38,961 nucleotides of DNA from Candidatus Bathyarchaeia archaeon (GCA_035637575.1 DASPWY010000189.1:1-38961), one strand, 5' to 3'; positions 6,942 through 36,778 are shown, numbered from the stretch's first letter. Made by a program: numbers and translations. Notes: generated by a model from the sequence alone, not told the origin.

Positions 6942-8476
6942 GGGAGAGGCTCCGTTATGAATCCATCAGATCCGTACCCAGTAACCAACTCGGTTCGAAG
7001 CTCTTCTTGGCTCTCCGCGCCTGTGGAGAGTCCGGGTTGGCTGTCGCCCATTTTCCAAGAGGCTCGCGATCTTAGCTTCCACCAGCTAGACAGTTCGCCG
7101 AGCGTCATGATTTCGCACTCCGGATCCTTGGAGAATCCCTCGAGAAGTCGCCTATACTCGCCTTGATGTTCTGGCATACCAAACTCATAGTCCGGATGGA
7201 CTAGCAAGACGCATGGTCCGGCTAAACTGCGAATCCAGCTTGAGAGTCGCAAGAGGAGGTCAACCGCGGCTGAAGGCCGCTGCCCGGCTATTCTAATCAG
7301 TTGATGATCCTGTGGGAGCGATACCGGGATCTCTAGTATTCCGTTGATTTCAAACGGGAATATCGTTCCAACGCCGTGTGCCCTCAAGGATGTCGGGGAC
7401 AGTATTTCCCAAGAAGGGCAGGACGAGTCGTAGTCGAAACCCGCCCTAGTCGCGGACTCTGCTAGTTCTCGGCTGTGTTGCAGCAGAGGTGCTCTGAAAC
7501 CTCTAACCTCTCGACCGGTAAGTTGTTCTAGCCTGTTCTTGCACTCTCCTAGTCGACGGATCTTCTCGTCAATATTCAGAAATGTAAGCCGCCCGTCGTG
7601 TTTGGTGTCGTGACCTCCAATCTCTCCCGAGTTCTTCAATTTGTCTAAGGAGTGAACCGATAGAGGGTAACGGTCGCTCGGAAGGTTCCAGGACGAGCGA
7701 ATCCGGAGGTTACGCTCAACCTCTAGCAATTGAGCTGTTCCTCTCTCCAAACCAGAGGCTCCTTCAACGTCGTGTGACACGACCAGAGCGTATGATTTTC
7801 CTCGCCTCCAGAAACCGATTCGAGGAATCGGACCAGAAGATATGACTAGGCTCGCCAAGAACAAAGTTCGAAGGCATTCGACGGGGGCCAGTTTCTCGTA
7901 CACGCTCTCTCCAAGATCTTCCTTCGTTCGGAAGGATCGTTCCCTTACGAACCGAGGAATCGCTGAGTAGGAGAATGGCAGTCTAGTGGCCATCCGGAAT
8001 TTCCAGCTAGGGGTCTCTTCAAAGCCGTCGTAGACTCTCTTGGAGAACTCGCCGACAAGATTCAACGAAAGGAGATAGACTCTCTCGCCTCTTACTTTGG
8101 TGAGAACCTGTGTGTTCCCTGACTTGAGAAGTGGTTCTGCATCGGGTCCTGAGAATTCACAGACATCGGTTCTGACGGATACGTTGGTGCCGGGGCCCGC
8201 CGGAAGAGAGATCAGGGAATTCCTTACAGATATTCCCAGTCCGTAGCTTCTAGCAATCCTCCCTGCTTCCTTCATTCCATTCGGAGATATTATCAGCGGG
8301 GAATCTTTCGGGTCAGAAGCCGTAGCATTGCCCGTAGCGAAAATCGCGGCTCCCTTGGTGCTGCTGTTGAGTTCGTAAGGTATCTTCCAGAAATCTGCGT
8401 ATTCTCGCAGAATGTTGGATTCAGTGTCTGAGTCCGATTTCAAGACAACAGGTCGAGTCCGAGAGATCTGAATCAT
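6938..8476 (-). CDS. Polysaccharide deacetylase (CE4/NodB-like) with a long N-terminal domain
   Basis: The track ORF extends to 8674, but its first 66 codons overlap the upstream GT2 gene. ATG at 8476 (MIQISRTRP) lies 2 nt after that gene's stop. CE4-like motifs are present: LVVSHDVEG, GFRAPLLQ and LLVHPDYEF. Confidence 0.7.
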   Translation of the reverse strand: MIQISRTRPVVLKSDSDTESNILREYADFWKIPYELNSSTKGAAIFATGNATASDPKDSPLIISPNGMKEAGRIARSYGLGISVRNSLISLPAGPGTNVSVRTDVCEFSGPDAEPLLKSGNTQVLTKVRGERVYLLSLNLVGEFSKRVYDGFEETPSWKFRMATRLPFSYSAIPRFVRERSFRTKEDLGESVYEKLAPVECLRTLFLASLVISSGPIPRIGFWRRGKSYALVVSHDVEGASGLERGTAQLLEVERNLRIRSSWNLPSDRYPLSVHSLDKLKNSGEIGGHDTKHDGRLTFLNIDEKIRRLGECKNRLEQLTGREVRGFRAPLLQHSRELAESATRAGFDYDSSCPSWEILSPTSLRAHGVGTIFPFEINGILEIPVSLPQDHQLIRIAGQRPSAAVDLLLRLSSWIRSLAGPCVLLVHPDYEFGMPEHQGEYRRLLEGFSKDPECEIMTLGELSSWWKLRSRASWKMGDSQPGLSTGAESQEELRTELVTGYGSDGFITEPLP

Positions 8477-8478
8477 GG

Positions 8479-9207
8479 CTAGTGCCTTGCCCCGAGTCTC
8501 AGAAGGACTATTGGCGTCACTATTTGACGCCAGTCTTTCAAAGGAGATATGTGCGAATATCCCCTCTTCTGAGTTTGAGAATACGTCTTCGACACAGGAC
8601 GTTCGGTGAACCTGTAGCCGAGAGTCAGGACCTTGTAGTGAAGGTAGTATTCCAGCTCGTATCCGTTGAGCCATTCCTGCGAGACGTTGATTTCTGGGTC
8701 TTGCAGCAATGCGGCCCTATACGCTCTGAATCCGTTGGTGACCTCGGTGCAGTGGACTCCCGTAAGTAGGGTCCAGGCGAAAGGGAACAAGCGCGTGAAT
8801 ATTCTTCGCAAGAATGGTGTTCGCTCGCCTCTTCCGCCTGGGAGGAATCTCGATCCCTGGACGTAGTCGAAGCCGTCTCGGATGATGGGGCTGGTTAGCC
8901 TCGGTATTTCCTGGGGGTCGTCCTTTCCATTTCCTGCCATGACTACGATAATATCGGCTCTCTCGGACAGTGCAGAGGTGTACCCTTGCTTGATCGCGTA
9001 TCCAATGCCCTGCCTGACAGGGTTTTCGATGATTCGAATTGGAACCGTGGTCTGTTTCCTACTTGACTCTATCTCGGCCAATATGGCGGCATTAGGATTG
9101 TCGACAATTATATAGATCTGGTCGACAGAGTCGGGCGCAAACCTCTCGATCACGCGCCCAATCTTTCCGACTTCTCGATAGACCGGGATGATCGCAACGC
9201 GTCTCAT
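8479..9207 (-). CDS. Family 2 glycosyltransferase (soluble, Dpm1/GtrB-like size)
   Basis: 242 aa. Motifs: VAIIPVYRE, IYIIVDN, VVMAGNGKDDPQEI (DxD-like region) and YVQGSRF. ATGA overlap with the upstream acetyltransferase gene. Confidence 0.75.
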   Translation of the reverse strand: MRRVAIIPVYREVGKIGRVIERFAPDSVDQIYIIVDNPNAAILAEIESSRKQTTVPIRIIENPVRQGIGYAIKQGYTSALSERADIIVVMAGNGKDDPQEIPRLTSPIIRDGFDYVQGSRFLPGGRGERTPFLRRIFTRLFPFAWTLLTGVHCTEVTNGFRAYRAALLQDPEINVSQEWLNGYELEYYLHYKVLTLGYRFTERPVSKTYSQTQKRGYSHISPLKDWRQIVTPIVLLRLGARH

Positions 9208-19536: not shown

Positions 19537-19571
19537 TGTAACTCGTCTGGAAGTCACGCTTCTTGGTCGAA

Positions 19572-20216
19572 ATGTCAACCGGCAAATTGTTCTTCGAAGT
19601 AGCTGCATCTCTAGACGGCTTTATCGCTCCAGAAGGAATGGATCTGGCCCACGCGAACCATCCAGAATTCAAGCAGTGGATGAGCCAATGGACGAAGTTG
19701 CAGAACTGGGTCTTTCAGCAACAGTTCTTCCGGAAAAACCTCAAGCTCGGCGACGGCGGTGAGACTGGCCGTGATAATCGAATGTTGGAAGAGACCTTCA
19801 ACCGCACAGGCGTGAGCATCATGGGAAAGAGAATGTTTGACGGGGGAGAACGATTCTGGCCGGAAGAAGCGCCCTTTCACACACCAGTCTTCGTCTTGAC
19901 TCACCAAGTGCGCAAGCCCTGGGAACGGCCAGGAGGCACCACTTTCTACTTCGTCAATGAGGGGATAGACGGTGCACTTGGACAGGCGCGAAAAGCCGCG
20001 GGCAACCGGGACATAAGAATCGCGGGAGGCGCAAATGTCATTCAGCAATATCTTAACGCTGGATTAGTTGACGAGTTTACAATCCACTACTCACCAGTAT
20101 TCTTCGGTCACGGAGCGCAGCTGTTTTCGAAAACAAGTAAGGACATTCGCGTAAAGATCAAAGAAGCATTTCCATCCAAGGAAGTTACGCATGTTACGTT
20201 CGAAGTAGAGAGGTGA
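19572..20216 (+). CDS. RibD C-terminal domain / dihydrofolate-reductase-like protein (paralog 1)
   Basis: KLFFEVAASLDGFIAPEG, VFVLTH and IRIAGGANVIQQYLNAGLVDEF. The track start is TTG 19563; I prefer ATG 19572. Confidence 0.7.
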   Translation: MSTGKLFFEVAASLDGFIAPEGMDLAHANHPEFKQWMSQWTKLQNWVFQQQFFRKNLKLGDGGETGRDNRMLEETFNRTGVSIMGKRMFDGGERFWPEEAPFHTPVFVLTHQVRKPWERPGGTTFYFVNEGIDGALGQARKAAGNRDIRIAGGANVIQQYLNAGLVDEFTIHYSPVFFGHGAQLFSKTSKDIRVKIKEAFPSKEVTHVTFEVER

Positions 20217-21764: not shown

Positions 21765-22343
21765 CTACCTCTTCGCAACAGGGATGGGTTCGTAATCGAG
21801 CCGGACGACTCCGTTCTTGTACGCCTTGCTTGCGTTGAGTTCGAGGTTGAGCCGCTTTTCGCCGCGGAAGAATGGCTTGCCGCTTCCGAGTAGCGTGGGG
21901 TGTAGCCAGATATGGAACATGTCGACGAGACCGGCCTCGGCTAGGCTCTGCACAAGTTTAGGGCTGCCGAACGTGACGATATCTTTTCCAGGCTTTTCTT
22001 TCAGCTTGCGAATCTCTCGTAGGGTGTCGCCTCGGAGTAGGGTGGCGTTGGCGTACTTGCCCCATGGGGTTTCCTTGAGAGTATTCGAAGCGACCAGCTT
22101 TGGTGTATTGTTCATTACCTCCGCGCCGGGAGAGGTCGTTTCAGTCTGGTTTGGCCACGCGCCTGCCATGATCTGGTAAGTCTGACGGCCTAGGAGGAAG
22201 GTCCCCGCGTTGGCCTGTAGTTTACTCATGTCAGCTCCCATGCCCTCGATGTCGAAATTATTGATGACCCAGTCCATCTCCTCTCTGGGACCAACAACGA
22301 ATCCATCTAGAGATAGGAACATGGAGACGACAACTTTACTCAT
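21765..22343 (-). CDS. RibD C-terminal domain / dihydrofolate-reductase-like protein (paralog 2)
   Basis: MSKVVVSMFLSLDGFVVGP, IVTFGSPKLVQSLAEAGLVDMF. The track ORF extends to 22382; I prefer ATG 22343. Confidence 0.7.
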   Translation of the reverse strand: MSKVVVSMFLSLDGFVVGPREEMDWVINNFDIEGMGADMSKLQANAGTFLLGRQTYQIMAGAWPNQTETTSPGAEVMNNTPKLVASNTLKETPWGKYANATLLRGDTLREIRKLKEKPGKDIVTFGSPKLVQSLAEAGLVDMFHIWLHPTLLGSGKPFFRGEKRLNLELNASKAYKNGVVRLDYEPIPVAKR

Positions 22344-22550
22344 GGGTAACAGAATCCTCCCGACAGCAGGACTTCCATCCACCCAGTCCAGCTTATTTCT
22401 TTGTTTTCGGCTGCAAGAATTCCAGGATCACCCTGTTCGCAATGCTTGGCTTTATGACAATAAGAAGCACGTAGTCTCAGTCCCCAGATTCATTCTTCTG
22501 GAAATCTGCGAGCTTTTCTATGGAGCGGCGAATGATTCGCTGAGTTTTCT

Positions 22551-22662
22551 TGGTGGGCCCGCCCGGATTCGAACCGGGGACCGTCAGGTGTCTCTTGCCG
22601 TGGCTATGAGCCTGCCGCTCTTTCAGTCCGTTGGATGTGAAACCTGGCTGAGCTACGGGCCC
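22551..22662 (-). tRNA. tRNA-Met/Ile2 (anticodon CAU, elongator type) with two introns and encoded CCA
   Basis: The reverse complement reads GGGCCCG UA GCUC AGCCAGGU..[about 19-nt insert]..A GAGC G GCAGG CUCAUA [15-nt intron GCCACGGCAAGAGAC, 22590-22604] A CCUGA CGGUC CCCGG UUCGAAU CCGGG CGGGCCC A CCA. The canonical 37/38 intron has 3-nt bulges and a 3-bp+mismatch central helix (CUC/GAG). The exact borders of the D-loop insert (about 22622-22640) are ambiguous. Confidence 0.85.
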
Positions 22663-27604: not shown

Positions 27605-27613
27605 TTTAATAAA
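27605..27613 (+). promoter_or_regulatory. Candidate TATA box for tRNA-Asn
   Basis: TTTAATAAA lies about 40-48 nt upstream of tRNA position 1, which implies a short 5' leader. Confidence 0.3.
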
Positions 27614-27652
27614 CGGAGTTTCCGGATTGCCGTTGCCGCCGGCTAGAAGCGG

Positions 27653-27814
27653 GCCGCCGTTCCCTCAAACAGGGGCGCGAGCTCAGTGGTAGAGCAGCGG
27701 GCTCAGCTCAAAACTGAGGCTGAAGCTGTTAAAGAAAGCCACTGCAGCAACCCGTTGGTCAGAGAGCCCACAGGACGGGCCCGGCCAGAGGTTCGAACCC
27801 TCTCGGCGGCGCCA
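27653..27814 (+). tRNA. tRNA-Asn (anticodon GUU) interrupted by four BHB introns; encoded CCA
   Basis: Exons are 27653-27660, 27680-27700, 27725-27731, 27750-27762 and 27789-27814. They join to GCCGCCGU AGCUCAGUGGUAGAGC A GCGGG CUGUUAA CCCGU UGGUC AGAGG UUCGAAC CCUCU CGGCGGC G CCA (75 nt, all stems paired). The introns are 27661-27679, 27701-27724, 27732-27749 and 27763-27788, and each has a 4-bp central helix flanked by two 3-nt bulges. The Asn assignment rests on GUU in a CUGUUAA loop, G73 and a GCCGCCG acceptor (recollection of archaeal tRNA-Asn). Confidence 0.8.
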
Positions 27815-29556: not shown

Positions 29557-30180
29557 TTGACGAGGAAGATTACGGTGAACATGTACATGACTCTCGACGG
29601 ATACGGCGAGTTTCCCAAGTATCCCGGGTCCGACGTTCCTTCGAAGGAACCTGGTGAGGGTTTCACTGACATGTGGATCAAACGATATGATTCGGTGGAC
29701 ACGATCTTGTACGGTCGGAAATCCTACGAAGGTCACGTTGCCGTACACTCCGAATCAGCGAGGAAAGCATCAGATCCGGAGTACCTGTTCGAGTTCTCAC
29801 GATTCCTAGGCCGAAGTCAGAAGATCGTCCTCTCTCACGTCCTGAAAAAGACCGAATGGCAGAATTCTAGGATCATGAAAGGAGACCTCAAACGAATCGT
29901 CGCCCGCCTGAAACGGGAACCGGGAAAGGACATCATCGTGGACGCGGGCCCCTCGCTCGTCCAGGAGTTCATCCGGCGGGGTCTAGCAGATGACTACCGT
30001 ATGATAGTGTGGCCAGTCATCCTCGGACGCGGGAAACACTACTGGGGGTCGATGCTGAAACAGCAGACGCTAAATCTCCTTTCTGTCAAGAGCCTAAAGC
30101 ATGGCGAGCTTATGCTACACTACGAGACGGTCCGATCCGGGAAGCGACAGGGGCCCCGCCGAGGGGTCCGAACCCCTTGA
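29557..30180 (+). CDS. RibD C-terminal domain / dihydrofolate-reductase-like protein (paralog 3)
   Basis: KITVNMYMTLDGYGEF, DTILYGRKSYE, IIVDAGPSLVQEFIRRGLADDY. TTG start. Confidence 0.65.
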   Translation: MTRKITVNMYMTLDGYGEFPKYPGSDVPSKEPGEGFTDMWIKRYDSVDTILYGRKSYEGHVAVHSESARKASDPEYLFEFSRFLGRSQKIVLSHVLKKTEWQNSRIMKGDLKRIVARLKREPGKDIIVDAGPSLVQEFIRRGLADDYRMIVWPVILGRGKHYWGSMLKQQTLNLLSVKSLKHGELMLHYETVRSGKRQGPRRGVRTP

Positions 30181-33813: not shown

Positions 33814-35367
33814 TCATGCGAGATTGTCGTATGCCATTAACGTCATGAACTCGGGGAAGCTATCGCTGGTCGTCAGTCTGTCAAGTAACTCTCCCGCGCC
33901 TCTGTAGTTGCTCGTATGATAGGCTCTCAATCCGATCTCTTCCGTTATTCGCGCCTTTTCTTCTCTCAGCATTGAGCGGAACAACCGGCGCGTAATGGTG
34001 GGTCCTTCGACTAGTTTGGCAGAGTGATGAATCCACTGCCAGATCTGTGCCCTACATATCTCCACCGTCGCCGTGTCTTCCATCAGGTTGTTGATCGCAA
34101 CGCACCCTAAGCCTCCCAACCACGACTCTAGATATCTCAGGCTCACGGCAATATTCGCTCTGACAGCTTGCTCGCTTATCTTCGGCTCCGGGACCTTGAG
34201 GAGATCCTCGCGGCCCACCTTTACTATCTCGCCACCGTCGTTGGATTCCAGAGGATGGTCGTTGAATACTTTCATGACGACAGGCACTAGTGCTGGGTGA
34301 GCGACCCACGCGCCCTGGTATCCCTCTGAAGCTTCGCGCTTCTTGTCCGCGAGCACCTTGTCGATTGCCTCCTGAGAACGCGGGTCACCTCTGATAGGGA
34401 CCTGTGCAGCCATTCCTCCGATTGCATAGGCGCCTCGTCTGTGGCACGTTTGAGCTAACAGTATCGAGCAGGATTTGAGGAAAGGCGTGGTCATGGGCAG
34501 TAGTGGTCTTTCGGGGACGACGAATCTTGGGTTCTCACCGAGGAATTTGATGAGGCTAAAGATGTAGTCCCAGCGGCCGAAGTTGAGGGCGGTTATCCTT
34601 TCGCGTAATGAGTAGAGGATTTCGTCCATCTGAAAAGCTGCAAGAATAGTCTCGATAAGGACGCTGCATTTGATGCTGGCGTGGGCAAGCTTGAGAGCCT
34701 TCTCCGTATAGTCGAAGATGTCGTTCCAGAGACGCGCCTCCTGATAGCTCTCTAGCTTGGGGATGTAGATGTAGGGTCCAGTCCCGCGACCTGCTAGCTT
34801 CTTTGCGTTGTGGTAGACGAAGAGGCCGTAGTCGAAGAGGAAGGCCGGAGTCGGATTGGACCCGAAGTGAGTATGCTTCTCGGTGAGGTGTAGGCCTCGA
34901 GGTCGGACGAAGAGTGTCGCAAGCTTTTCTCCGAGCCTATACTCTCGTCCATCCGGACCCGTATATGCGATGGTCCGGTTGACTGCATCTCGAAGATTAG
35001 CCTGACCCTGCAGGGTTCCCCTCCAGGTTGGCGAGTGGGAGTCTTCGAAGTCGGCCATATAGACGTCAGCGCCGGAATTGAGAGCATTGATCACCATCTT
35101 CCGGTCGACTGGACCAGTGATTTCGACGCGCCGCTGGCGAAGGTCGGCTGGGATAGGTCCGATTTTCCAGTCGGAGTTTCGAATTTCGCGCGTCTCGTCG
35201 AGGAAATCGGGAAGTGTTACGGTGCGGAGGCTCTCATGGACGAGGATTCTCTTCTGAAGTAGGAAGTCTAGGCGTGGAGAAAATTCTCGGACCAGATCGC
35301 GGACGAAGGCGAGCGCATCGGGGGTCAGTATCTCTTCGAAGCCCTCGAGGGTCGGGGATGGGATCAT
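33814..35367 (-). CDS. aceB: Malate synthase A
   Basis: 517 aa, collinear with E. coli AceB. Shared segments include RRVEITGPVDRKMVINALNSGADVYMADFEDSHSPTW, GRWDYIFS, HRRGAYAIGGMAAQ and LMEDTATVEICRAQIWQWIHH. Confidence 0.93.
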   Translation of the reverse strand: MIPSPTLEGFEEILTPDALAFVRDLVREFSPRLDFLLQKRILVHESLRTVTLPDFLDETREIRNSDWKIGPIPADLRQRRVEITGPVDRKMVINALNSGADVYMADFEDSHSPTWRGTLQGQANLRDAVNRTIAYTGPDGREYRLGEKLATLFVRPRGLHLTEKHTHFGSNPTPAFLFDYGLFVYHNAKKLAGRGTGPYIYIPKLESYQEARLWNDIFDYTEKALKLAHASIKCSVLIETILAAFQMDEILYSLRERITALNFGRWDYIFSLIKFLGENPRFVVPERPLLPMTTPFLKSCSILLAQTCHRRGAYAIGGMAAQVPIRGDPRSQEAIDKVLADKKREASEGYQGAWVAHPALVPVVMKVFNDHPLESNDGGEIVKVGREDLLKVPEPKISEQAVRANIAVSLRYLESWLGGLGCVAINNLMEDTATVEICRAQIWQWIHHSAKLVEGPTITRRLFRSMLREEKARITEEIGLRAYHTSNYRGAGELLDRLTTSDSFPEFMTLMAYDNLA

Positions 35368-35422
35368 AAAGCTCGAGAGTCGGGACTAGACTTTAGATCC
35401 ATAGTCAGGTTAGGTTGGTGAT

Positions 35423-36778
35423 TCAATTCTGTTGACTCTTGTCGTGATCGTTTTCCGAGCGGTGGATCGGAGGCGTGACCATGGCTGTTTGATCTTTGAA
35501 CTGAGCTGTCTCTGTAGACTCATCCATCGCCGTGGTTGAGGATGTTCCGCTCGATATTACGGTCGAAACCTCGTCGAAGTATTCAGTTCCGACGAAAGCC
35601 TGGTGTTTGACCGCTGCGTAGCCTTCCCTTTCGGCCTCGAACTCTTTTCCTTGGACACGAACGTAGGCCGACATTCCTTCAACAGCGTACTGTCTGGCGA
35701 GTTCGAACATGGAGACTGAGAGGCTGTGGAAGCCTGCGAGGGTGACAAATTGGAACTTGTAACCCATCGAGGCTAGGTCCCTCTGGAAGCTCCGGATTAC
35801 ATGAGGATCGAGATGTTTCTCCCAGTTGAATGAGGGCGAACAATTGTACGCGAGTAGCTTACCCGGATAGACTCTATGGATGCCTTCAGCAAATCTTCGA
35901 GCCTCGTCAAGGTCTGGCGTCGCAGTCTCACACCATACGAGGTCGGCGTATGGCGCATAGCTGATGCCACGCGCGATTGCCGCTTGTAGTCCGGGTTTGA
36001 GTCTATAGTAACCCTCCGCGGTTCGTTCCCCTGTCGTATACGGAAGATCCCGCGGGTCAGCGTCGCTGGAGAGGAGCTTCGCTCCGACTGCATCCGTTCG
36101 CGCTACTAGATAGGTAGGGACGCCCATCACGTCCGCCGCAAGCCGGGCAGCGACTAGGGTCCTGATGAACTGGTGAGTTGGGACTAGGACTTTGCCGCCT
36201 AAGTGGCCGCACTTTTTCTCTGATGCAAGCTGATCTTCGAAGTGTACTCCCGACGCTCCCGCTTCGATCATTGCTTTCATCAGCTCGAACGCGTTGAGGG
36301 GGCCTCCAAACCCGGCCTCGGCGTCGGCGATTATCGGGGCGAACCAGTCGATCTTTCCTTTCCCGCTCAAGTATTGTATCTGATCGGCTCTCTGGAAAGC
36401 TTGATTGATTCTCTTTACGAGATTCGGAACGCTGTTGGAAGGGTAGAGGCTCTGGTCCGGGTATGTCTGGCCTGAAAGGTTAGCGTCCGCGGCTACCTGC
36501 CAGCCGCTCATGTAGATGGCTTTTAGGCCGGCCTGAACCATTTGAACTGCCTGGGCTCCTGTAAGTGCGCCTAGCGTTGGAATGTAGGCCTCATCCGCCA
36601 GGAGGCGCTCGAATTTCTCTGCACCTATTCTAGCGAGCGTATACTCGGGACGGATTGTACCACGAAGTCTGACAACATCCTTTGCCGAGTAGGGTCGACG
36701 AATCCCATTCCAACGATCGGAGAGCCAGCTCTGCTCTAAGCGTCCAGTCTCGTTGCTGGCATCAGCTACGCTGGTCAC
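35423..36778 (-). CDS. aceA: Isocitrate lyase
   Basis: 451 aa with a GTG start. The ICL signature [13 protein letters not shown] is present, along with [18 protein letters not shown] and CSPSFNW. The C-terminus extends about 24 aa beyond the usual ...TETAQF end. Confidence 0.93.

Follow-up and report, generated by a model that had tools for sequence, protein, structure and literature searches.

A tRNA-Asn(GUU) gene with four predicted bulge-helix-bulge introns and a putative leader decoy in soil Bathyarchaeota

The 38,961-nucleotide (nt) stretch of DNA from a Candidatus Bathyarchaeia archaeon that we analyzed (GCA_035637575.1, DASPWY010000189.1:1-38961, hereafter called the window) carries at positions 27653–27814 of its plus strand a real and conserved gene for tRNA-Asn(GUU), almost certainly functional and interrupted by four predicted introns. 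The best explanation for this locus, and one that we hold with high confidence, is that of a functional tRNA-Asn(GUU) gene of soil Bathyarchaeota, in which five colinear exons are separated by four short bulge-helix-bulge (BHB) introns and for which we infer the processing pathway throughout. Ahead of the gene, the predicted transcript starts with a copy of the 5′ strand of the acceptor stem, which may serve as a decoy that frees the first exon for splicing.

An earlier reading made from the sequence alone (the sequence-only reading) had placed five exons of 8, 21, 7, 13 and 26 nt and four introns of 19, 24, 18 and 26 nt on the plus strand, and we found the sequence of all these pieces exactly as claimed. 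Exon 1 (27653–27660, 8 nt, GCCGCCGU) comprises tRNA positions 1–8 and is followed by intron 1 at position 8/9 (27661–27679, 19 nt), whose 3′ GGCG (27674–27677) mimics the 3′ strand of the acceptor stem and pairs with C3–C6 of the exon. Exon 2 (27680–27700, 21 nt, positions 9–30) supplies the D arm, A26 and the 5′ strand of the anticodon stem, and is matched by the Rfam tRNA model. Intron 2 at 30/31 (27701–27724, 24 nt) contains a 5-bp inner hairpin (CUCAG/CUGAG) and a central GCUG that pairs with C25–C28. It is followed by a micro-exon, exon 3 (27725–27731, 7 nt, positions 31–37), which consists of G31 and CUGUUA and thus holds the anticodon GUU. Intron 3 (27732–27749, 18 nt) occupies the canonical position 37/38 and its central GCAG pairs with C32–U35, while intron 4 at 50/51 (27763–27788, 26 nt), which lies beyond exon 4 (27750–27762, 13 nt, positions 38–50), interrupts the T stem. 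The central GGCC of intron 4 pairs with G45–C48 and both of its bulges read AG/A, the slash denoting the cut. Exon 5 (27789–27814, 26 nt, positions 51–76) completes the T arm and provides the 3′ strand of the acceptor stem (27804–27810), G73 (27811) and an encoded CCA (27812–27814). On the same strand further upstream lie a TATA-like box (TTTAATAAA, 27605–27613), a putative archaeal promoter whose centre is located about 26 nt upstream of 27635, and the leader motif GCCGCCG (27635–27641), an exact copy of the acceptor 5′ strand that starts 18 nt upstream of exon 1. The spacer between this motif and exon 1 (27642–27652) ends in GG (27651–27652), which pairs with U12 and C13 and lengthens the outer helix of the first BHB (BHB-1). 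A split or permuted tRNA gene was ruled out, since all five exons follow each other in colinear order on a single strand, span 162 nt and are preceded by one promoter-like box; group I/II self-splicing introns were likewise ruled out, given that the introns of the four-intron precursors measure 16–27 nt and gave no match to an Rfam intron family.

Joining of the five exons gives a 75-mer that ARAGORN calls as tRNA-Asn(gtt). All 21 stem pairs of this product (7 + 4 + 5 + 5) are standard, including one G-U pair, and all 24 invariant or identity positions that were checked are correct, among them U8, A14, G15:C48, G18, G19, U33, G34, U35, U36, G53, T54, T55, C56, A58, C61, G73 and CCA. The description of the spliced sequence as a flawless tRNA-Asn(GUU) cloverleaf is thereby borne out. 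The anticodon GUU and the discriminator base G73 are identity elements for AsnRS, and both are present, the former as G34, U35 and U36 inside the 7-nt exon and the latter at 27811.

The introns were examined with a BHB rule according to which the four exon nt that precede the 5′ bulge pair with intron nt −6 to −3 and the cut falls after the second nt of each 3-nt bulge. For all four introns the central helix is in register (4/4 pairs) and both bulges measure 3 nt, and cutting after the second bulge nt generates the correct exon junctions, as had been proposed. As chance controls, each intron was shuffled and random window sites were scored: 4/4 helices arose in 0.4–3.7% of the trials per shuffled intron and at 2.0% of the random sites, which amounts to a joint chance of about 1.5e-7 for four such helices. 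The same 75-mer can be obtained with 1, 4, 3 and 6 equivalent junction placements for introns 1, 2, 3 and 4, respectively, and even after correction for these 72 (1×4×3×6) placements the joint probability is only about 1e-5, in agreement with the earlier assertion that the BHBs are unlikely to occur by chance. The further assertion that the junctions had been fixed from the cloverleaf first holds for intron 1 but not for introns 2, 3 and 4, where the BHB register alone selects the placement. The 4/4 score is restricted to the placement given here, the exception being intron 4, for which a second register (shift −2) scores equally in the window yet fails in the relatives. Intron 4 has six equivalent placements because its terminal AG (27787–27788) repeats the end of exon 4 (A49 and G50), and a T stem (27787–27803) can form in the unspliced RNA.

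In the window copy, the helices flanking the BHB cores comprise 4 bp (outer) and 2 bp (inner) for intron 1, 2 bp and 5 bp for intron 2, 1 bp (5 bp once intron 2 is gone) and 2 bp for intron 3, and three G-U pairs and 1 + 4 bp for intron 4. Judged by these helices, the four BHBs do not all appear to be of the strict helix-bulge-helix-bulge-helix (hBHBh′) type, and several of the outer helices are marginal. The four BHBs are relaxed motifs, which implies an endonuclease of broad specificity.

Metagenomes scanned with a pattern that reaches from exon 4 to exon 5 yielded at least 119 loci, which were aligned in spliced form and parsed. All four introns (8/9, 30/31, 37/38 and 50/51) are present in at least 52 loci representing at least 38 distinct precursors, whose architecture is identical to that of the window gene. 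At least 55 loci (at least 38 distinct precursors) have three introns and lack the one at 50/51, and at least six loci (at least five distinct precursors) have two, at 8/9 and 30/31. A single intron, 139 nt long and located at 37/38, was found in L105 alone among the matches listed, and none of the 119, all of which share this 3′ half, is an intron-free gene among the matches listed. Each of the introns has a clean empty site in some relative. At the syntenic position of two contigs from metagenome-assembled genomes (MAGs), L001 and L002, the gene has exons identical to those of the window, and all differences fall inside the four introns. The exons hardly vary across 77 aligned distinct precursors, in contrast to the diverging introns and flanks, and the micro-exon is invariant in all listed loci that have introns 2 and 3.

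The pairing partners of the BHBs are maintained in spite of this divergence. Among the matches listed, which contain 47, 46, 38 and 17 distinct sequences of introns 1, 2, 3 and 4, respectively, an in-register 4/4 central helix is kept in 79/89 distinct precursors for intron 1, 89/89 for intron 2, 83/86 for intron 3 and 43/43 for intron 4. When anchored at the splice sites, the inner helix of intron 1 shows CG, UA and UG pairs at one position, followed by CG, AU, UA and GC at its neighbor; that of intron 2, which is paired in 100% of the cases, shows AU, GU and GC followed by GC, AU, GU and CG. Taking the decoy and BHB helices together, 98.5% of the cells are paired in the 77 distinct precursors, compared to 35–48% when the partners are slid. 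Double-sided changes in nine pairs account for 76 cells versus 15 expected, and in none of 500 shuffles was any of the observed measures reached. The pairing of the leader GG with U12 and C13 in the outer helix of BHB-1 is 96.8% conserved, with changes from G-U to A-U. The T stem of the spliced product covaries as well (AGAGG/CCTCT, ACAGG/CCTGT, GCAGG/CCTGC, GAAGG/CCTTC, ATCGG/CCGAT and GTCGG/CCGAC). Furthermore, almost all of the related loci retain the TATA-like box, as TTTAATAAAC or CTTTAAATA, at an unchanged distance amid diverging sequence. Because of this conservation, the covariation, the empty sites and the promoter, we consider chance to be ruled out and a pseudogene very unlikely.

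The introns of the relatives differ in a few respects from those of the window. Intron 3 of the relatives contains a 6-bp inner hairpin (AGUGGA/UCCACU). In the window only the 3′ half of this hairpin remains (...CCACU), along with a 2-bp inner helix, so that its intron 3 looks like an eroded form of the relatives' intron. Intron 4 is missing in about half of the related loci listed, where the sequence runs uninterrupted as GGTCAGAGGTTCG or GGTCACAGGTTCG. Its presence and absence are observed within two separate backgrounds, namely the window clade versus L012, L030, L107 and L111, and L114 versus L035. The latter two, of which L114 carries a 19-nt intron at 50/51 and L035 none, share the leader and introns 1–3 and belong to a clade whose T stem (GAAGG/CCTTC) is unlike that of the window. 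Since presence and absence thus differ also in a clade with another T stem, intron 4 appears to have been gained or lost more than once, or to have moved between lineages. Two further loci, L045 (WNGG01009822.1) and L072 (WNEZ01180979.1), have exons 2–5 and their introns intact while promoter, decoy and exon 1 are missing. In L045, the sequence that lies upstream of the TATA box in L042 is joined directly to the final nt of intron 1, and in L072 unrelated sequence takes the place of exon 1 ahead of an intact intron 1. These two could be truncated copies, assembly chimeras or genes whose 5′ exon is encoded elsewhere.

Based on these features, a pathway for the maturation of this tRNA can be proposed. 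According to standard archaeal promoter geometry, transcription would start about 26 nt downstream of the centre of the TATA-like box, at or beside G27635. The first seven transcribed nt (GCCGCCG) would then pair with the 3′ strand of the acceptor stem (27804–27810), which would leave exon 1 free, so that C3–C6 can pair with the 3′ GGCG of intron 1 and form the central helix of BHB-1, whose outer helix would be built by the last two leader nt together with G1 and C2 pairing with positions 10–13. The archaeal splicing endonuclease would cut after the second nt of each 3-nt bulge, and a ligase of the RtcB type would join the exons. The central and inner helices of introns 1, 2 and 4 are self-contained, and these introns should be cuttable independently of each other. 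For intron 3, the outer helix is the anticodon stem, which would arise only once intron 2 has been removed and the exons ligated: before removal of intron 2 this helix amounts to the single pair G31-C39, afterwards to the 5-bp anticodon stem, and the 2-bp outer helix of intron 2 (G24-C32 and A23-U33) overlaps the central helix of intron 3. Since the outer helix of intron 3 needs intron 2 to be gone, removal of the 30/31 intron before the 37/38 intron is to be expected, and the 7-nt micro-exon would never be free. The ordered splicing put forward in the sequence-only reading is supported by this change from 1 bp to 5 bp, as a prediction. A forced order of removal is known for closely spaced archaeal tRNA introns (PMC8450103). 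With exon 1 attached to the D arm, the equally stable decoy helix could give way to the true acceptor stem; RNase P would remove the leader, and the CCA is encoded.

The role assigned to the leader in this pathway builds on conservation, co-occurrence and folding. GCCGCC in the leader is invariant in 77/77 aligned distinct precursors, and a copy of at least 6 nt was found in 61 of the 62 distinct leaders of genes with an 8/9 intron, the one exception looking like a stray regular-expression match. At least 10 leader families share the motif but are otherwise unrelated. As controls we used the leaders of a neighboring tRNA gene with the anticodon CAT, none of which (0/51) copies its own acceptor strand; the background rate is 2.6%. 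L105, the sole listed orthologue without the 8/9 intron, has no leader copy. Structures of minimum free energy (MFE) were used solely for the competition between the decoy and the true acceptor stem and not as evidence for the BHBs or the splicing order. The predicted primary transcript (27633–27814) has an unconstrained MFE of −78.6 kcal/mol, at which the leader copy is paired with 27804–27810. Enforcing the true acceptor in the same transcript gives −73.7 kcal/mol, whereas enforcing the BHB-1 core gives −75.3 kcal/mol with the decoy helix retained. In a transcript without the decoy (27646–27814; MFE −71.2 kcal/mol) the true acceptor stem forms and BHB-1 is blocked. A decoy would be needed because the central helix of BHB-1 uses C3–C6, which are otherwise held by the 7-bp GC acceptor stem. 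From sequence and modeled folding we infer that the leader copy serves as a decoy and makes exon 1 available for the first BHB by a swap of partners, in which the leader mimics the 5′ strand of the acceptor stem and the GGCG of the intron mimics its 3′ strand.

In its wider form, this proposal describes a built-in RNA chaperone: the copies in the leader and in the intron would swap partners with the real acceptor stem, so that the GC-rich stem cannot lock exon 1 away from the endonuclease, the decoy would be a required and co-evolving accessory of introns located beside the acceptor stem, and together with the forced order of 30/31 and then 37/38 this would constitute a programmed folding pathway. 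For this wider form we see the balance as roughly even. A search of the literature returned no description of such a leader decoy; this search was incomplete, and an earlier description is possible.

Several observations weigh against the pathway or parts of it. Several flanking helices are marginal in the window copy, the geometry with 3-nt bulges is never the MFE structure in the full precursor or in any of nine partly spliced intermediates, and enforcing the four BHB cores together costs about 23 kcal/mol relative to the MFE. Neither an EndA nor an RtcB domain was found among the 27 window proteins scanned. With regard to the decoy, the helix GCCGCCG/CGGCGGC never varies and is hence supported by conservation and co-occurrence but not by covariation; the absence side of the co-occurrence consists of one relative without intron 1 (n = 1) plus the control tRNA; and the decoy helix is still preferred in silico in the fully spliced RNA, where it could hinder the final folding.

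The points concerning the decoy lend some weight to a different explanation of GCCGCCG, which we rate as possible though distinctly the less probable one. Instead of taking part in RNA folding, the motif could be an initiator or promoter-proximal element that acts at the DNA level, a relic of the origin of the 8/9 intron by duplication of the 5′ end, or an element for RNase P or other 5′-end processing. The copy sits at the predicted transcription start, both strands of the would-be helix are invariant, and a helper should hardly keep an advantage over the true acceptor once splicing is complete, as the copy does in silico. On the other hand, the conserved part of the leader is confined to the 6–7 nt that are complementary to the 3′ acceptor strand, while all other positions diverge, and in L093 and L035 the match shifts its register yet still pairs with positions 67–73. 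The absence of a copy from the 51 neighboring-tRNA leaders of the same genomes and from the one listed orthologue that lacks the 8/9 intron also speaks for the decoy, and a neutral relic should have diverged as much as the sequence around it.

The number of introns depends in part on intron 4, for which a reading as mature sequence has to be weighed. The 26-nt insertion at 50/51 might persist as a long extra arm of the mature RNA, with the terminal AG of the intron replacing A49 and G50. The MFE structure of the unspliced RNA indeed forms the T stem with the intron AG (27787–27788), and Infernal treats the piece as an insertion in the variable region. However, all 17 of 17 variants of the piece keep the 4-bp helix, the symmetric AG/A bulges and the exact cutting register, and about half of the listed relatives, near-identical backgrounds included, lack the piece precisely and have the same mature sequence. 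We thus regard retention as very improbable. No tRNA-Asn of the class II type is known.

A slightly lower probability still is given to a decaying pseudogene with junk insertions, next to a working tRNA-Asn gene elsewhere. Our view covers the window and the fetched loci, and some helices of the window copy look eroded, with the 5′ half of the intron 3 hairpin lost and an A-C mismatch in intron 4. Decay is nevertheless difficult to reconcile with exons that are invariant or correctly covarying in 77 distinct precursors while introns and flanks diverge, with the conservation of the promoter and the encoded CCA, with the maintenance of every BHB core and with the count of intron-free copies (0/119 among the matches listed). 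Finally, the chance assembly of tRNA-like fragments in a flexible search by eye, for which the choice of five pieces leaves many degrees of freedom and the cloverleaf determines a unique placement for just one junction out of four, is practically out of the question given the corrected joint BHB probability and, decisively, the conservation in more than 100 independent loci, and is refuted by the comparative data.

The interrupted structure of the gene affects its detection. ARAGORN found no tRNA here in the unspliced window, either with or without its intron mode, and Rfam gave no match at the locus in the window at gathering thresholds. With a permissive threshold, the Rfam tRNA model aligned exons 2, 4 and 5 of the unspliced DNA with 22.9 bits (E = 0.012; gathering score 29) and treated the rest as insertions. 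In the orthologues L001 and L002, ARAGORN reported a false 'tRNA-Gly(ccc) with a 108-nt intron', for which the leader copy was taken as the acceptor. The single-intron orthologue L105 gave no match with Rfam either, presumably due to its 139-nt intron, which makes this test uninformative. The expectation that standard finders miss or mistype the gene is thus correct for ARAGORN and Rfam, both of which were run, but tRNAscan-SE may well find it, as its version 2.0.12 called four-intron genes in Asgard archaea (PMC11291895).

The neighboring tRNA gene with the anticodon CAT (22555–22662, minus strand, 108 nt; Met or Ile2) is a second hidden tRNA gene, with the acceptor GGGCCCG/CGGGCCC, A73 and an encoded CCA, and was missed by both ARAGORN and Rfam. 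Compared to intron-free 74-nt orthologues in L089 and L109, it contains about 20 extra nt within the D loop and some 15 nt at 37/38. Its orthologues in the fetched loci span 74, 87–92, 104–117 and about 130 nt, corresponding to 0 to 3 insertions. In L003, a tRNA-Arg(TCG) gene (8372–8486, plus strand) has a 36-nt intron that holds a near-exact second copy of the region of the anticodon arm (GGGCCTTCGGAGTTGACCCAAAA and GGGCCTTCGGAGTTAGCCCAAAA), and either of the two might be usable.

The gene neighborhood is that of an otherwise archaeal contig. The gene content of the window is ordinary and includes glycosyltransferases, an epimerase, malate synthase, isocitrate lyase and members of the archaeal families DUF359 and DUF1616. 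A neighboring protein of 351 amino acids (aa) has relatives on three genome contigs, two of them labeled Candidatus Bathyarchaeota (the soil-depth MAGs BA_2 and BA_19) and one Dormiibacterota, and exact copies on soil metagenome contigs. The contig labeled Candidatus Dormiibacterota, a bacterial phylum, is L001 (DASPWZ010000004.1); it carries the archaeal four-intron tRNA-Asn gene and a copy of the neighboring protein with 76% identity, and is probably a mis-binned archaeal contig. Three other features of the window were noted: bacterial-type 5′-3′ exonuclease domains (PF02739 and PF01367; 18622–19536, plus strand), which may stem from horizontal transfer; adjacent genes for malate synthase and isocitrate lyase (33814–36778, minus strand), together a glyoxylate shunt; and three paralogous proteins with a RibD_C domain (dihydrofolate-reductase-like) within 11 kb (19563–20216, plus strand; 21765–22382, minus strand; 29557–30180, plus strand).

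We compared the gene to already described systems to evaluate what is new about it. According to reviews, a tRNA gene contains no more than three introns (PMC4033280, PMC8450103), which is also the figure that the sequence-only reading gave when it called four unusual. Four is indeed rare but not unprecedented, since Supplementary Data 4 of Valentin-Alvarado et al. 2024 (PMC11291895) tabulates four-intron genes of the soil Asgard archaea Freyarchaeia and Atabeyarchaeia, analyzed with tRNAscan-SE 2.0.12. In Freyarchaeia, Arg-TCT and Ile2-CAT have four introns according to both tRNAscan and R2DT, whereas Leu-GAG of Freyarchaeia and Trp-CCA of Atabeyarchaeia-2 have three by tRNAscan and four by R2DT (PMC11291895). 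These archaea resemble the host in their soil habitat, in carrying four-intron genes and in that 92–95% of their tRNA genes bear introns; they differ in belonging to another phylum and in having two introns in their tRNA-Asn genes (PMC11291895). Their four-intron cases are confined to a table, and the text available to us neither analyzes them structurally or comparatively nor describes a leader element (PMC11291895).

The multi-intron tRNA genes of the Thermoproteales (Pyrobaculum, Thermofilum and Caldivirga; PMC4033280, PMC8450103) likewise have closely spaced introns that are removed in order, and this group belongs to the same broad group as the host, Thermoproteati, whose endonucleases accept relaxed BHBs. 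Up to three introns have been described there, in contrast to the four found here in a mesophilic soil lineage, and the papers available to us mention no copy of the acceptor strand in a leader. Nuclear tRNA genes of Cyanidioschyzon merolae have ectopic BHB introns at 37/38 as well as in both the D and the T arm, and the removal of flanking introns before the one at 37/38 has been shown experimentally for them (PMC3728597), whereas the order proposed here is predicted from sequence. That organism is a eukaryote, a red alga, with three introns at most and with some permuted genes (PMC3728597). Nanoarchaeum equitans and Caldivirga have split tRNA genes (PMC4090602, PMC4033280) in which leader and trailer sequences beyond the mature tRNA similarly pair to build the endonuclease substrate. 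They do so between separate transcripts and the leader helix is part of the BHB, while here the leader of one colinear transcript would pair with the 3′ strand of the acceptor stem, away from the BHB, as a competitor. Our literature search found nothing on tRNA introns in Bathyarchaeota. New in the present case are the lineage, the isotype, the breadth of comparative support, the series from one to four introns and the leader decoy.

With this finding, the occurrence of four introns in hyper-fragmented tRNA genes reaches beyond the soil Asgard archaea to include Bathyarchaeota, and the relatives with one, two, three and four introns and clean empty sites are a good system for studying the gain and loss of tRNA introns. 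Its main value, for specialists in tRNA and archaeal RNA processing, lies in the decoy hypothesis and in a blind spot of annotation rather than in the intron count as such. As the only visible tRNA-Asn gene and the neighboring CAT tRNA gene are missed or mistyped by common finders, estimates of MAG completeness and statistics of the tRNA complement are probably biased for this abundant soil lineage. If the decoy is confirmed, an intron that borrows acceptor-stem nt for its BHB would need a competitor for the opposite strand, which would improve the prediction of introns near tRNA ends and explain how introns at such positions are tolerated.

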